Shown piece by piece: positions 1 to 11,011 of a stretch of 11,011 nucleotides of DNA; within the stretch, counting starts at the first letter, position 1; each line of letters opens with the position of its first letter. Source of the stretch: a virus (lineage: Duplodnaviria > Heunggongvirae > Uroviricota > Caudoviricetes); IMG/VR virus record IMGVR_UViG_2740892233_000013; one strand, given 5' to 3'. The translations under genes were made by a program, and so were the position numbers. The notes below the pieces were generated by a model. The model made no database searches. It had not been told where the DNA came from and worked only from the letters and a program-made list of their open reading frames with translations.

Positions 1-1
1 C

Positions 2-413
2 CAGATACGTATTCGCGGTGAGGACACGGCACCGGAGGCGGTGTACGCCCGTCTTCACGAACAGTTGGGTGAGGGAACGGTCATCCACATTGTGCCGCGA
101 CTGGCCGGGGCCGGAAAGGGTGGACTGCAGATTGTGCTGGGGGCGGCAGCCATCGTGGGCTCTTTCTTCACTGCCGGGGCATCAATGGCGTTATGGGGTT
201 CAGCCCTGGCAGCCGGTGGTTTTTCTGCCACCACAATGCTGTTTTCACTGGGGGCCAGCATGATACTGGGTGGTGTGGCTCAGATGCTTGCCCCGAAGGC
301 AAAAACACCGGATTACCGCGCAACGGATAACGGCAGACAGAACACGTATTTTTCCTCGCTGGATAACATGATTGCCCAGGGGAACCCGATGCCGGTGCCT
401 TACGGTGAAATGC
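2..413 (+). CDS. I: Tail assembly protein I, partial (5' end outside window, 3' end runs into N gap)
   Basis: Frame translation ...AVYARLHEQLGEGTVIHIVPRLAGAGKGGLQIVLGAAAIVGSFFTAGASMALWGSALAAGGFSATTMLFSLGASMILGGVAQMLAPKAKTPDYRATDNGRQNTYFSSLDNMIAQGNPMPVPYGEM resembles lambda gpI C-terminal half (from memory). Confidence 0.85.
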
Positions 414-423
414 NNNNNNNNNN

Positions 424-661
424 TCTGGGTGGTGTGGCTCAGATGCTGGCCCCGAAGGCTAAAGTACCGGAGTACAAAAGCACGGATAACGGCAGACAGA
501 ACACGTACTTTTCCTCGCTGGATAACATGATTGCCCAGGGGAACCCGATGCCGGTGCCTTACGGTGAAATGCTGGTTGGCTCCCGGCGAATCTCCCAGGA
601 CATCAGTACCCGTGATGAAGGCGGTGACGGGAAGGTGGTGGTTATCGGGCGGCAGGCATAA
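424..661 (+). CDS. I: Tail assembly protein I, C-terminal fragment with stop (second allele, overlaps previous segment)
   Basis: LGGVAQMLAPKAKVPEYKSTDNGRQNTYFSSLDNMIAQGNPMPVPYGEMLVGSRRISQDISTRDEGGDGKVVVIGRQA, stop TAA at 659-661. Confidence 0.85.
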
Positions 662-666
662 AAGCG

Positions 667-704
667 AAAAAATCCCGCAGTGCTCACGGACAGGAACTGC
701 GGGA
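667..704 (-). terminator. A-run plus hairpin (tcccgcag ... ctgcggga) just after I stop; on the minus strand it reads as hairpin followed by U-run
   Basis: Inverted repeat 673-680 / 697-704 with A6 at 667-672; orientation fits termination of leftward transcription. Confidence 0.3.
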
Positions 705-765
705 GCGTTACGAAGATTGAGTGTAAGGAATTATTCTTATGTCACGACAAAAANNNNNNNNNNGC

Positions 766-798
766 GGAAAGGTCGTGGTTATCGGGCGGCAGGGGTAA
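766..798 (+). CDS. I: Tail assembly protein I, extreme 3' end of a third allele
   Basis: GKVVVIGRQG then TAA at 796-798; same C-terminal motif as 424..661 with a different last residue. Confidence 0.6.
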   Translation, partial: GKVVVIGRQG

Positions 799-804
799 AA
801 AGAA

Positions 805-829
805 TAAAAAAATCCCGCAGAGTTGCGGG
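805..829 (-). terminator. Variant of the post-I A-run plus hairpin (cccgca gagt tgcggg)
   Basis: A8 at 805-812 followed by 6-bp stem and 4-nt loop at 814-829; minus-strand terminator-like. Confidence 0.3.
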
Positions 830-969
830 GACAGACAAAGATTAACGTTAAGGAGTTATTTTTGTTTCTGGTGCTCGGGCAAAAAAAACATTAACGCAGA
901 GAAATTATTAGCACCACAGTCAGTTTGTGAAAATGTGAAGATATTCAGAAGTTTTATTCAATCATGATA

Positions 970-999
970 CAGGCATCCTCCGGGATGCCTGTTGTTTTT
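970..999 (+). terminator. Hairpin plus T-rich tail in I-J spacer (empty, no-sodC allele)
   Basis: caggcatcc tccg ggatgcctg (9-bp perfect stem) followed by ttgtttttg; about 180 nt upstream of J start. Confidence 0.5.
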
Positions 1000-1117
1000 G
1001 TGCGTAACAGTTATCACAGTAAAGGNNNNNNNNNNACATTAACGCAGAGAAATTATTAGCGCCACAGTCAGTTTGTGAAAATGTGAAGATATTCAGAATT
1101 TTTATTCAGTCATGATA

Positions 1118-1147
1118 CAGGCATCCTCCGGGATGCCTGTTGTTTTT
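1118..1147 (+). terminator. Same hairpin plus T-rich tail in the overlapping segment
   Basis: Identical caggcatcctccgggatgcctg + ttgtttttg; 35 nt upstream of J ATG at 1182. Confidence 0.5.
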
Positions 1148-1181
1148 GTGCGTAACAGTTATCACAGTAAAGGGTGAGACA

Positions 1182-1291
1182 ATGGGCAAAGGTGGCGGCA
1201 AGGCGCACACGCCGGTAGAGGCAAAGGACAATCTTAAGTCCACGCAGATGATGAGCGTGATTGATGCCATTGGTGAAGGGCCGATTGAAGG
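1182..1291 (+). CDS. J: Host specificity protein J, N-terminal fragment (allele with empty I-J spacer)
   Basis: ATG at 1182 preceded by aaagggtgagacaATG; [37 protein letters not shown] matches lambda gpJ N-terminus. Confidence 0.85.
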
Positions 1292-1361
1292 NNNNNNNNN
1301 NCATTAACTCAGAGAGGGAGGATGTGCCGTTCTTTTCAGGGAGAAAGGATTTATCGTCCTG

Positions 1362-8465: not shown

Positions 8466-8475
8466 NNNNNNNNNN

Positions 8476-9623
8476 TTAAGCCCGGAAAGGATTTCTGGTT
8501 TTATGTGCGCAGCGTCAACCTGGTGGGTAAATCTGCTTTTGTGGAAGCCAGTGGACGGGCGAGCAATGATGCTGCGGGCTATCTGGAACTTTTCCGGGAA
8601 AAGATAGGAAAAACGCATCTGGCAGAGGCGCTGTGGGCAGAGATTGACAACAGTCAGCTGAAGGACGAGATGGCGGAAATGCAGACCACCATCACAGAAA
8701 CCCGCAATGAAATCACACAGACGGTCAGTAAAACGCTGGAAGACCAGAGCGCCACCATTCAGCAGATACAGCGCGTGCAGAAGGACACAAATGATGACCT
8801 GGCTGCGCTGTACATGCTGAAGGTTCAAAAAACGAAAGACGGCATTCCCTATGTGGCCGGGATTGGTGCAGGGATTGAGGATACTGATGGCCAGCCACTG
8901 AGCAACATACTGCTGCTGGCTGACCGTATCGCGATGATAAATCCGGAGAGCGGCAACAGCACGCCGTTATTTGTGGCGCAGGGGAATCAGCTGTTCATGA
9001 ACGACGTGTTCCTGAAGCGACTGTTTGCGGTGAGTATCACGTCATCCGGCAACCCCCCGACGTTTTCCCTGACGCCGGAAGGGAAGCTGACAGCCAGGAA
9101 CGCGGATATCAGCGGAGCAATTACCGCGAATACCGGCACGCTCAATAATGTCACCATTAACGAGAACTGTGTCATCAGAGGGAAACTGTCTGCAAACCAG
9201 ATTGAAGGCGACCTGGTGAAGACGGTGGGGAAAGCCTTTCCCCGGAATAACAGTTATGCCAGCGGGACGGTAACCGTCACAGTTTACGATGACCAGGGCT
9301 TCGACCGGCAGATCATCATTCCCCCGGTGCTGTTTCGCGGGACGAAACACCAGAATTTCAACAGCCCGAATCAGCAGTCGTACTGGTATTCCACCTGTAA
9401 GCTGCAGGTGCTGAAGAACGGGGTTGAGATTTTCCATGAACCGGCAACGGATGTCAGCCGGGTGTTCTCATCGGTGATAGATATGCCGGCAGGGCGGGGT
9501 CATGTCACCCTGACGTTTAATGTGTCGTCGGCCGGTGCGAACAACTGGACGCCGACAACGTACATCAGTGATTTACTGGTTGTGGTGATGAAAAAATCCA
9601 CAGCAGGTATCAGTATCAGCTGA
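8476..9623 (+). CDS. J: Host specificity protein J, C-terminal third with stop (receptor-binding domain allele 1)
   Basis: [39 protein letters not shown]...[71 protein letters not shown]...[21 protein letters not shown], stop TGA 9621-9623; matches lambda gpJ C-terminus (..[18 protein letters not shown]..). Confidence 0.9.
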
Positions 9624-9673
9624 ATTTTATAACCCAGAANNNNNNNNNNATTGCAGAAAAGCGAGAGGTAATT

Positions 9674-9703
9674 ATGCGTAAACTTTATGCCGCCATTTTG
9701 TCC
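9674..9703 (+). CDS. lom: Lom/Ail/PagC-family outer membrane protein, first 10 codons (segment ends in N gap)
   Basis: gagaggtaattATG, MRKLYAAILS; same sequence as 10349..10378. Confidence 0.7.
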
Positions 9704-9713
9704 NNNNNNNNNN

Positions 9714-10281
9714 TCCGGCATTTTCCCTGACGCCGGACGGGCGACTGACGGCGAAAAATGCGGATATCAGTGGCAGTGTGAATGCGAACTCAGGGACGCT
9801 CAACAACGTCACGATTAATGAGAACTGTCAGATTAAGGGGAAACTGTCAGCCAACCAGATTGAAGGCGATATTGTCAAAACGGTCAGCAAGTCTTTCCCC
9901 CGCACGAGCACTTATGCCAGTGGCACCATCACGGTAAGAATCAGTGATGATCAGAAGTTTGACCGGCAGGTCATGATACCGCCAGTGTTATTCCGCGGTG
10001 GTAAGCATGAGAATTTCAACAGTAATAACCAACAGTCATACTGGTATTCAACCTGCCGGTTAAGAGTGACCCGCAATGGTCAGGAGATTTTTAATCAGTC
10101 CACGACGGATGTTCAGGGCGTATTTTCCTCAGTTATAGATATGCCTGCCGGACAGGGGACGCTGACACTGACATTCACCGTATCTTCATCAGGAGCGAAT
10201 AACTGGACACCAACAACCAGTATCAGCGATCTGCTGGTTGTGGTGATGAAAAAATCCACAGCAGGTATCAGTATCAGCTGA
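9714..10281 (+). CDS. J: Host specificity protein J, C-terminal fragment with stop (receptor-binding domain allele 2)
   Basis: [101 protein letters not shown]...[21 protein letters not shown], stop TGA 10279-10281; clearly diverged from 8987..9623 at the DNA level. Confidence 0.9.
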
Positions 10282-10299
10282 ATTTTATAACCCAGAACG

Positions 10300-10324
10300 G
10301 GCGTCAGAAATGACGCCTTTTTTT
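10300..10324 (+). terminator. Rho-independent terminator after J
   Basis: ggcgtca gaaa tgacgcc (7-bp perfect stem, GAAA loop) followed by T7 at 10318-10324; 19 nt after J stop. Confidence 0.75.
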
Positions 10325-10348
10325 ATTGCAGAAAAGCGAGAGGTAATT

Positions 10349-10382
10349 ATGCGTAAACTTTATGCCGCCATTTTGTCCGCAG
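10349..10382 (+). CDS. lom: Lom/Ail/PagC-family outer membrane protein, 5' fragment
   Basis: SD gagagg 6 nt upstream of ATG at 10349; MRKLYAAILSA (start of signal peptide). Confidence 0.8.
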
Positions 10383-10392
10383 NNNNNNNNNN

Positions 10393-10556
10393 GTTTGTGC
10401 AGCCATTTTGTCCGCAGCCATCTGTCTGGCCGTATCCGGTGCGCCTGCATGGGCGTCTGAGCAGCAGGCCACGCTGAGCGCGGGGTATCTTCATGCCCGG
10501 ACGAACGCTCCCGGTAGCGATAATCTTAACGGGATTAACGTGAAATACCGTTATGA
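10393..10556 (+). CDS. lom: Lom/Ail/PagC-family outer membrane protein fragment (signal peptide and first strands)
   Basis: AILSAAICLAVSGAPAWASEQQATLSAGYLHARTNAPGSDNLNGINVKYRYE; lambda Lom has ..KGINVKYRYE.. Confidence 0.85.
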
Positions 10557-10566
10557 NNNNNNNNNN

Positions 10567-10642
10567 ATGGTGACGTCTTTCAGCTATGCAGGAGACAAGA
10601 ATCGCCAGCTGACCCATTACAGCGATACCCGCTGGCATGAAG
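10567..10642 (+). CDS. lom: Lom/Ail/PagC-family outer membrane protein short fragment
   Basis: [24 protein letters not shown]; overlaps next segment with one nonsynonymous difference (H vs R). Confidence 0.75.
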
Positions 10643-10652
10643 NNNNNNNNNN

Positions 10653-11011
10653 ATTCACGGACACGCTGGGGCTGGTGACGTCATTCAGCTATGCAGGAGA
10701 CAAGAATCGCCAGCTTACCCGTTACAGCGATACCCGCTGGCATGAAGATTCCGTGCGTAACCGCTGGTTCAGCGTAATGGCGGGGCCGTCTGTGCGCGTG
10801 AATGAATGGTTCAGCGCGTATGCGATGGCGGGTGTGGCTTACAGCCGTGTGTCGACTTTCTCCGGGGATTATCTTCGCGTAACTGACAACAAGGGGAAAA
10901 CGCACGATGTGCTGACCGGAAGTGATGACGGTCGCCACAGCGACACCTCTCTGGCGTGGGGAGCTGGCGTGCAGTTTAACCCGACCGAATCCGTGGCCAT
11001 TGATATTGCTT
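10653..11011 (+). CDS. lom: Lom/Ail/PagC-family outer membrane protein fragment, 3' end beyond window
   Basis: [67 protein letters not shown]...[21 protein letters not shown]; lambda Lom has ..[37 protein letters not shown]. Confidence 0.88.

Follow-up and report, generated by a model that had tools for sequence, protein, structure and literature searches.

The window, by which we mean the whole 11,011-nt stretch of DNA analysed here, consists of mis-scaffolded pieces of genes I, J and lom from at least five lambda-like prophages, and is not one stretch of a chromosome. It is very probably a k=65 short-read de Bruijn scaffold, most likely built by Velvet/Pebble, from a sample of E. coli with at least five lambda-like prophages.

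Segments and spacers

The whole window holds 27 runs of N, each exactly 10 long, which delimit 28 segments (S01 to S28) of 54-1164 bp. A preliminary description, made from the letters of the window, had counted the N runs correctly but gave 35 bp as the length of the shortest segment. These spacers are placeholders, not measured gaps; a uniform minimal gap length is what is expected of a scaffold with minimum-gap N buffers, and all 27 runs have it. Velvet writes gaps shorter than 10 bp as 10 N. The features of the window are as follows.

414-423 (first) to 10643-10652 (last), unstranded: N10 spacers, n=27, by direct listing
1-413, + strand: S01, 3' part of tail assembly gene I, copy a; maps to L001 5933-6345, annotated 'tail assembly protein'
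424-753, + strand: S02, gene I end and downstream spacer, second copy; L061 5671-6000
764-1291, + strand: S03 and S04, two alleles of the I-J spacer without sodC, by overlap comparison
1302-2181, unstranded: S05, sodC cargo and then the J start, by Pfam and genome matches
1400-1927, - strand: sodC, prophage cargo gene in S05 (Pfam Sod_Cu, E = 3.9e-32)
2192-9639, + strand: S06-S23, 18 overlapping in-frame fragments of the tail tip/host specificity gene J, by mapping and Pfam
9650-10382, + strand: S24 and S25, by sequence comparison and Pfam
10393-11011, + strand: S26-S28, overlapping fragments of lom, encoding an Ail/Lom outer membrane protein (Pfam Ail_Lom, E = 1.5e-67)

We aligned the segments, as the preliminary description had suggested, to one lambda-like reference, the contiguous locus L001 of NZ_AP042519.1. 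They fall on it in rising order, from 5933 to ~10411, and in these coordinates the next segment starts upstream of the previous segment's end at 24 of the 27 N runs. The earlier claim that every segment restarts in this way thus holds except at S18|S19, S23|S24 and S26|S27, where there are instead forward gaps of ~106, 27 and 19 nt in locus coordinates. The aligned overlaps between window neighbours are 24-344 nt long and 86.2-100% identical, with a mismatch rate of 6.25%. The SNPs quoted earlier between 3048-3472 and 3483-3992 are present (10 mismatches in 279 nt), and differences in the overlaps are indeed mostly synonymous (240 synonymous against 78 non-synonymous codon differences). Each J segment is one open, in-frame piece of J. 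Gene boundaries are repeated within the window: J starts occur three times, and J stops, lom starts and gene I stops twice each. Over one 65-nt stretch we count five distinct alleles, and J positions in general carry one to five. Rfam and tRNA scans of the window gave no matches.

Gene content

The Pfam search of the gene I fragment in S01 matched no family, and the fragment is named from the L001 annotation only; S01 ends on a 64-mer common to S02. Gene I stops at 659-661 in S02, which adjoins the sodC copy S05 in L061 (S02 at 5671-6000, S05 at 6001-6880), and again at 796-798 in the S03/S04 stretch. The latter also has the terminator-like hairpin, at 969-992 and 1117-1140, and the first of the J start codons (1182); S04 is 1 nt away from locus L065 of strain MBT-5. 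In S05 the second J start codon follows sodC at 2061 (+ strand); this segment is 100% identical to NZ_CP074958.1 and NZ_CP182203.1 and shows 0 differences to L061. The third J start is at 2195 and the J stop of the S06-S23 stretch at 9621-9623, and the Pfam domains found in the J fragments are Phage-tail_3, Ig_J_second, Phage_Tail_Tip and Ig_GpJ_C.

Segment S24 (54 nt), with a lom start at 9674, is identical to the interior of S25. Segment S25 encodes a second, divergent J C-terminal receptor-binding domain (Pfam Ig_GpJ_C, E = 2.5e-37), followed by a J stop at 10279-10281, a hairpin at 10299-10324 and a lom start at 10349; it is 1 nt from MBT-5 locus L065 and 73% identical to L001. Of the lom fragments, S26 adjoins S28 in L062 with 0 differences (7525-7688 and 7689-8047), and S27, with 0 differences to L061, represents a variant of the beginning of S28.

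With its J domains, its Ail_Lom domain and an I-J-lom order like that of annotated relatives, this content is that of a lambda-like tail tip module. It resembles the lambda-like I-J-lom module of EHEC/STEC, with a tail assembly protein, sodC on the opposite strand, J and Ail/Lom; the same gene order is annotated in NZ_CP074958.1, NZ_CP058682.2 and NZ_AP042519.1, and the Pfam domains agree. A real module occupies one contiguous locus of 4.9-5.4 kb, whereas the window contains at least five modules mixed together, with 2.0-2.2-fold redundancy.

Mapping of the window to a single locus

In complete E. coli genomes, the 10,741 bases of the window other than N fold back onto a single I-(sodC)-J-lom locus of about 4.8-5.4 kb. 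We searched 5,426 such genomes and found window matches in 4,937; at the top-ranked single places the window matches in 19-27 pieces over ~4.8-5.4 kb. Since the whole window maps to single places of this size, the real locus is roughly half the window length, as had been estimated from the sequence. Open reading frames that run across N runs, also suspected earlier, are artefacts of fragment joins; one at 4263-5807 crosses three of them.

Gap-separated duplicate blocks on one scaffold that collapse to one locus in finished genomes are the mark of a false duplication. In false 'heterotype' duplications, diverged copies lie side by side on one scaffold with gaps between them and produce false gene gains (PMC9516828). 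Those copies are a diploid's two haplotypes (Ko et al. 2022, PMC9516828), whereas the copies in the window belong to paralogous prophage modules of a bacterium (or to strains), and 28 pieces rather than two are interleaved.

A possible objection is that the window is a real array of partial J copies, either silent tail-fibre cassettes or tandem duplications, with short unsequenced gaps. The J fragments are all open, in frame and mostly synonymous in their differences, and preserved cassettes could look alike. Against this, in the complete E. coli genomes with matches (4,937 of the 5,426 searched) the window collapses to single I-J-lom loci of the ordinary kind, of which a genome has up to 13; the window contains more than one gene I end, J start, J stop and lom start; and ten N is not a multiple of three. 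The complete E. coli genomes showed no contiguous array of copies in window order, and the places in them that cover the window best are ordinary loci of about 4.8-5.4 kb. Two further points, taken up below, are that true segment neighbours are non-adjacent in the window and that fragment boundaries obey a k-mer rule, not a biological one. We give this reading almost no chance; the one-locus collapse, the absence of direct joins and the repeated landmarks effectively refute a tandem duplication or cassette array.

True neighbours of the segments

Eight pairs of segments that are not neighbours in the window abut perfectly, forming the chains S02>S05>S07, S13>S15>S18>S22, S19/S20>S23 and S26>S28. 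The direct 60-mer junctions of six pairs (those in S05>S07, S13>S15>S18>S22 and S19/S20>S23) occur in 1-24 real contigs; S02>S05 and S26>S28 also abut, in locus coordinates, the junction 60-mer search having covered the other six pairs. Direct joins of window neighbours are present in none of the 27 cases among 60 real contigs. The preliminary description had proposed that segments aligning end to end without overlap would refute a tile path of overlapping fragments; such pairs do exist, but only among non-neighbours and not among window neighbours. Because non-neighbours abut end to end, at least two paths must be interleaved in the window.

Segment ends and the k=65 signature

Of 25 testable 3' ends, 10 have exactly 64 nt in common with another segment, and longer shared ends do not occur; the chance probability of this suffix pattern is ~2e-19. 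At the other end, 19 of 23 testable segments start exactly on a mismatch to a homologous segment (P ~2e-11). We found no 64-nt prefixes shared between segments. Segment S20, at 70 nt, is 6 variant nt plus 64 and is a textbook bubble arm of a k=65 graph. Segment S24, at 54 nt, is below k=65, so it cannot be a free-standing contig at that k; its exact length, however, does not fit a simple one-T indel bubble, for which 58 nt would be expected, and this counts against the graph reading. The mismatch starts, a length of S24 below k and the lack of shared 64-nt prefixes are as expected of nodes whose first k-1 bases are absent. By their ends, the segments resemble the nodes that a de Bruijn assembler produces at k=65; this points to the scaffolder of an assembler and not to a manual join.

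As a positive control, we built a k=65 graph from six real loci and wrote its nodes one base per k-mer. In it, 154 of 236 nodes are shorter than k; the 3' 64-mer recurs in another node for 70 of the 236, and at 65 or more nothing recurs. Velvet gives a node's sequence as the last base of every k-mer, and its k must be odd.

In one respect the segments depart from such a graph, in which no k-mer is common to two nodes: four pairs share interior exact runs, of 152, 95, 95 and 80 nt. Interior runs above 64 nt are impossible in a pure k=65 graph, and we therefore infer that repeat resolution, after graph construction, placed copies of shared nodes in several contigs. Pebble copies shared nodes in this way.

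Other assemblers fit less well. SPAdes joins edges with an overlap of K, and only odd values of K are allowed; a junction of 64 nt would imply K = 64, with the overlap at both ends of whole edges, and we rejected it. ABySS and unitig sets have two-sided overlaps and no piece shorter than k, and do not match the one-sided overlaps and the 54-nt piece seen here.

The segments could also have been concatenated after assembly, as small contigs that were ordered on a reference or pooled and given fixed N10 linkers by a submitter or tool. The linker length is uniform, and the segments are near-sorted along the reference (2 inversions among 276 pairs by end coordinate), both as this would predict. 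However, free k=65 contigs would be at least 65 nt long and have k-1 overlaps at both ends, whereas S24 is only 54 nt and the signature is one-sided: suffixes of 64 nt are shared, prefixes of that length are not, and the starts lie on variant bases. Moreover, contigs as short as 54-76 nt are usually filtered out ahead of any ordering. We consider such concatenation very unlikely.

Alleles of several prophages

The segments derive from several distinct prophage-type alleles, which are present together in single complete genomes. Exact or 1-nt J matches link S11 and S15 to L061, S15, S18 and S22 to L062, S14 to L064, and S20 to L001. Strain 03_3013 has S05, S11, S15 and S27 with 0 differences at 3.59 Mb and S15, S18, S22 and S28 with 0-1 differences at 1.26 Mb; strain MBT-5 has S05 at 2.42 Mb, S14 at 3.29 Mb, and S04 and S25 at 3.23 Mb. 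Complete E. coli genomes have up to 13-14 J places each (9-14 in single STEC-type genomes), and J paralogues within one complete genome are 85-91% identical. The identity of the segment overlaps (86-98%) falls in this same range. The earlier view that several lambdoid copies had been joined by N10 spacers therefore stands as to the several copies and their joining, but calling them near-identical overstated their similarity.

A pattern that runs across an N spacer, with N matched as N, had no match in genome_contigs, metagenome_contigs or viral_contigs. The sequence patterns of S25 and S23 matched 53 viral and 6 metagenome contigs and none in genome_contigs. The 53 viral loci lack 10-N runs, and no locus among them contains more than two of the shortest segments. 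By BLAST, the six metagenome loci (L055-L060) have at most one exact segment each, S24 in L056 and L058.

The same artefact might have arisen from a mixed sample, a metagenome or mixed culture in which the alleles came from different E. coli strains or free phages. Up to five alleles stand at one position, and no examined complete genome has all segments exactly, in a comparison that covered five loci of two genomes. The best genomes also differ by segment (OkiPb01684 for S23, 03_3013 and JB2 for S05, MBT-5 for S14 and S25), and the S23 pattern occurs in human-gut and other metagenome contigs. Yet the 9-14 J places of an STEC-type genome, 85-91% identical, suffice for both the depth and the divergence seen; segments co-occur at different loci of one genome; and scaffolding of nodes judged 'unique' by coverage is most natural at uniform single-genome coverage (PMC2793427). 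We regard a mixture as rather unlikely and favour a single genome with several prophages. It is likewise unlikely, and a shade more so, that the overlapping alleles represent real within-sample diversity of the host-range gene J, in co-existing strains or phage variants; if they did, the scaffold would be an accidental snapshot of J microdiversity.

Proposed origin of the scaffold

For a single E. coli genome with several prophages, we propose the following. The prophages would share the I-J-lom tail-tip module at 85-98% identity, and because of this sharing the graph would be broken into short copy-specific nodes between shared stretches. The copy-specific nodes would have single-copy coverage and hence be treated as 'unique'. 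Read pairs anchored in the shared flanks would then put nodes of different copies at overlapping estimated positions. The scaffolder would order the nodes by estimated position, find no graph path, and insert its minimum 10-N buffer because the estimated distances were zero or negative. A segment after an N run would be written without its first k-1 = 64 bases, so that it would start on the base separating sister copies and end 64 bases past the last distinguishing base.

Pebble judges the uniqueness of a node from coverage alone, calls its secondary distances 'fuzzy', and, where presumed neighbours have no path between them, joins them by a buffer of N (Zerbino et al. 2009, PMC2793427). The window resembles Velvet/Pebble scaffolds in its uniform and minimal buffers, in the k-1 = 64 signature of its nodes, in the absence of their first k-1 bases and in an odd k (65). 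Unlike a plain Velvet/Pebble graph, it has interior shared runs above 64 nt, which need extra copying of repeat nodes. These likenesses of sequence layout make Velvet/Pebble the probable assembler.

Implications

The relevance of this finding is to quality control only. Since the window is an assembly artefact, its gene models should be ignored. Gene callers run on it would return false, frameshifted or chimeric models of J, I and lom, and it would inflate gene copy number and mimic a tandem duplication of a phage host-range determinant. The signature could be used to flag and mask scaffolds of this kind when genomes are scanned, pangenomes built or training sets compiled; its elements are numerous N runs of one fixed minimal length, adjacent segments that overlap at 86-98% identity, and segment ends with exactly k-1 bases common to another segment. 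The underlying biology is already well known: STEC-type E. coli have many mosaic lambdoid prophages, some with sodC, which differ in their J receptor-binding domains, and such prophages in number are a known cause of poor short-read assemblies (PMC9278759).

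Collapse of the window onto a single locus

The window contains 27 runs of N, every one exactly 10 long, that divide it into 28 segments (S01 to S28, numbered 5' to 3'). The preliminary description had put segment lengths at 35 to 1164 bp; the upper bound holds, but the shortest segment measures 54 nt. It had also proposed that each segment restarts upstream of where the previous one ended. We aligned all segments to one reference, L001, a contiguous lambda-like locus in the complete E. coli chromosome NZ_AP042519.1 annotated with a tail assembly protein, gpJ and Ail/Lom. The segments traverse L001 positions 5933 to ~10411 in rising order, with the restart seen at 24 of the 27 N runs. 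Overlaps between neighbors are 24-344 nt long at 86.2-100% identity; forward gaps occur instead at S18/S19 (~106 nt), S23/S24 (~27 nt) and S26/S27 (~19 nt). For S01 to S25, segment order departs from the reference by 2 inversions in 276 pairs when judged by end coordinate, 9 by start and 6 by midpoint. Near-sorting by end coordinate is what would be given by a scaffolder advancing by estimated distance, and its being better than sorting by start may reflect extension of the scaffold on the opposite strand.

In complete E. coli genomes the whole window, as a query, falls in 19-27 pieces onto single places of ~4.8-5.4 kb. Its 10,741 non-N bases cover ~4.9 kb, or 5.4 kb if sodC is counted, a 2.0-2.2-fold redundancy that bears out the earlier estimate of a real locus roughly half the window length. 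The example SNPs quoted earlier are found in the window; overlapping J segments show 240 synonymous versus 78 non-synonymous codon differences, and the J frame is open in every J segment. J has three start codons and two stops in the window, lom has two starts and gene I two stops; the window is therefore not a single locus.

Segments that truly adjoin are not neighbors in the window. In reference coordinates six non-neighboring pairs abut base to base (S05>S07, S13>S15, S15>S18, S18>S22, S19>S23 and S20>S23, the second member starting at the end of the first), and each direct 60-mer junction has exact matches in between 1 and 24 of the 60 real contigs fetched. Coordinates of two further loci add S02>S05 and S26>S28. 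Conversely, the 60 contigs contain no direct join of window neighbors for any of the 27 pairs. These absent joins between neighbors while non-neighbors abut, together with the repeated starts and stops and the collapse onto single places, effectively refute a genuine array of partial J copies.

Gene content

The features of the segments are as follows.
S01: gene I fragment, no Pfam match, named from the L001 annotation
904-933 and 1052-1081, minus strand: promoter-like site (TTCACA, 16 nt spacer, AATAAT; 10/12 matches, consensus match only)
969-992 and 1117-1140: terminator-like hairpins, I-J spacer, two alleles
1370-1393, minus strand: terminator-like hairpin after sodC
1400-1927, minus strand, inside S05: complete sodC, encoding a 175-aa Cu/Zn superoxide dismutase (Pfam Sod_Cu, E = 3.9e-32)
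J fragments: Pfam Phage-tail_3, Ig_J_second, Phage_Tail_Tip and Ig_GpJ_C
8476-9623, S23: J C-terminal receptor-binding domain, Ig_GpJ_C
9714-10281, S25: J C-terminal receptor-binding domain, a second, divergent Ig_GpJ_C
10299-10324: terminator-like hairpin, J-lom
S28: Pfam Ail_Lom

Rfam and tRNA scans of the window found no Rfam families or tRNAs. The sodC gene, a known prophage cargo, lies on the opposite strand between genes I and J in one of the prophage copies, an arrangement annotated likewise in many complete E. coli genomes. The promoter-like site recurs in the I-J spacer that lacks sodC, in each of its two alleles, and points away from J; a scan of 600-2200 gave 8 terminator-like sites against 1.3 expected.

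The two J receptor-binding domains are clearly different, S25 having only ~73% identity to an S23-type reference, and the S23 and S25 J ends converge, with the last J stretch and downstream spacer identical. Two such domains in the sample make it likely, judging from sequence, that co-resident prophages differ in receptor specificity.

Some long ORFs in a mechanical ORF list extend across between one and three N runs, among them 4263-5807, 2544-3599 and 1400-2779 (minus strand). Such ORFs are chimeric, combining either different J alleles or sodC with antisense J, so that the earlier warning against gene models spanning N runs was justified; a gene caller would list them as genes.

Segment boundaries follow a k-mer rule

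In an all-against-all comparison, the longest exact run was precisely 64 nt in seven pairs, and in every case it lay at one member's 3' end. Ten 3' ends (S01, S03, S09, S10, S11, S12, S17, S19, S20 and S23) match another segment exactly over 64 nt with a mismatch just before, and no match exceeded 64 nt among the segment ends tested (chance probability ~2e-19). At the 5' side, 19 of 23 testable segments start exactly on a base differing from the homologous segment (~2e-11), where the overlap mismatch rate is only 6.25%. S11 and S12 finish together on one common 64-mer, as do S19 and S20 on another, after which the next reference base is the start of S23. The 70 nt of S20 are made up of 6 nt in which variants cluster and a further 64, precisely the length that a bubble arm has at k = 65.

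For a positive control, six real I-J-lom loci were converted into a de Bruijn graph at k = 65, its nodes written as one base per k-mer. This gave 236 nodes in all; 154 of them fell below k in length, and 70 of the 236 had a 3' 64-mer recurring in another node, with no recurrence at 65 or more. The signature is one-sided, which means that each segment is a graph node whose first k-1 bases were left unwritten. Velvet stores nodes in this form, and it requires an odd k. SPAdes we ruled out: a 64-nt junction would imply K = 64, and SPAdes needs an odd K.

At 54 nt, S24 (9650-9703) falls short of k, and it is 100% identical to the interior of S25 (612-665 of that segment); its distinguishing bases must lie in the unwritten prefix, outside the window. 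If it differed by a single T in the T run of the hairpin upstream, a 58-nt node would be predicted, against the actual 54 nt, and S25 ends exactly 4 nt beyond the S24 end. Concatenation of free contigs, by hand or with reference guidance, is very improbable, because no contig at k = 65 could be as short as 54 nt and because the segments show the overlap signature on one side only.

In four segment pairs the interiors match exactly over runs of 152, 95, 95 and 80 nt; these misfit a pure graph and require that repeat resolution put copies of shared repeat nodes into two or more contigs. Pebble, the Velvet scaffolder, copies common repeat nodes in this way.

Origin of the alleles

Complete E. coli genomes, many of which have 9-14 J places, supply exact or near-exact matches to the segments; several genomes matched by individual segments are labeled O26, O103, O111, O145 or O157. 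Best identities in complete genomes are 100% for S05 and S14, 99.9% for S25, 99.8% for S22 and 99.3% for S23. In strain 03_3013, the sodC prophage at 3.59 Mb carries S05, S11, S15 and S27 with 0 differences, and the prophage at 1.26 Mb carries S15, S18 and S28 with 0 and S22 with 1, the chain S15-S18-S22 being contiguous there. In strain MBT-5, S05 (1 difference) lies at 2.42 Mb, S14 (0) at 3.29 Mb, and S04 and S25 (1 each) at 3.23 Mb. The J with the exact S14 allele (NZ_CP058682.2 3285483-3296992, at 4221-10155) is split by an IS66-family element with tnpA, tnpB and ISEc22 transposase.

Five distinct alleles cover one 65-nt stretch of the window, and therefore at least five J genes were in the sample. 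These alleles might instead come from different strains or phages in a mixed sample, which would give the same picture, and no single genome examined has all of them together. We nonetheless consider this unlikely: single genomes supply enough J copies (up to 13-14 places) and enough divergence, their J paralogs having 85-91% identity, the same range as the window overlaps, and coverage-based scaffolding suits a single genome better. With the overlaps and the collapse onto one locus, the presence of the alleles in different prophages upholds the proposal of a tile path of fragments from several lambdoid prophage copies.

Assembly of the window and its parallels

The window is an assembly artifact that interleaves k = 65 graph nodes from different I-J-lom copies, and the segment signature points to a Velvet-like assembler. 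Copy-specific nodes at single-copy coverage would be counted as 'unique', uniqueness in Velvet being judged by coverage alone, and read pairs anchored in stretches common to the copies would yield the secondary distances termed 'fuzzy'; nodes judged adjacent that no graph path connects are bridged by an N buffer (PMC2793427). Fuzzy distances would set nodes of different copies at overlapping positions. Zero or negative distance estimates would then drop the buffer to its 10-N minimum; Velvet writes a gap estimated at <10 bp as 10 N.

In vertebrate assemblies, false duplication can leave copies on one scaffold with gaps between them (PMC9516828), and the window is the bacterial, paralog counterpart. 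Mosaic lambdoid prophages, sodC cargo and alternative J receptor-binding domains, which make up the underlying biology, were all known before. STEC genomes are difficult to assemble from short reads (PMC9278759), and the window illustrates the reason.
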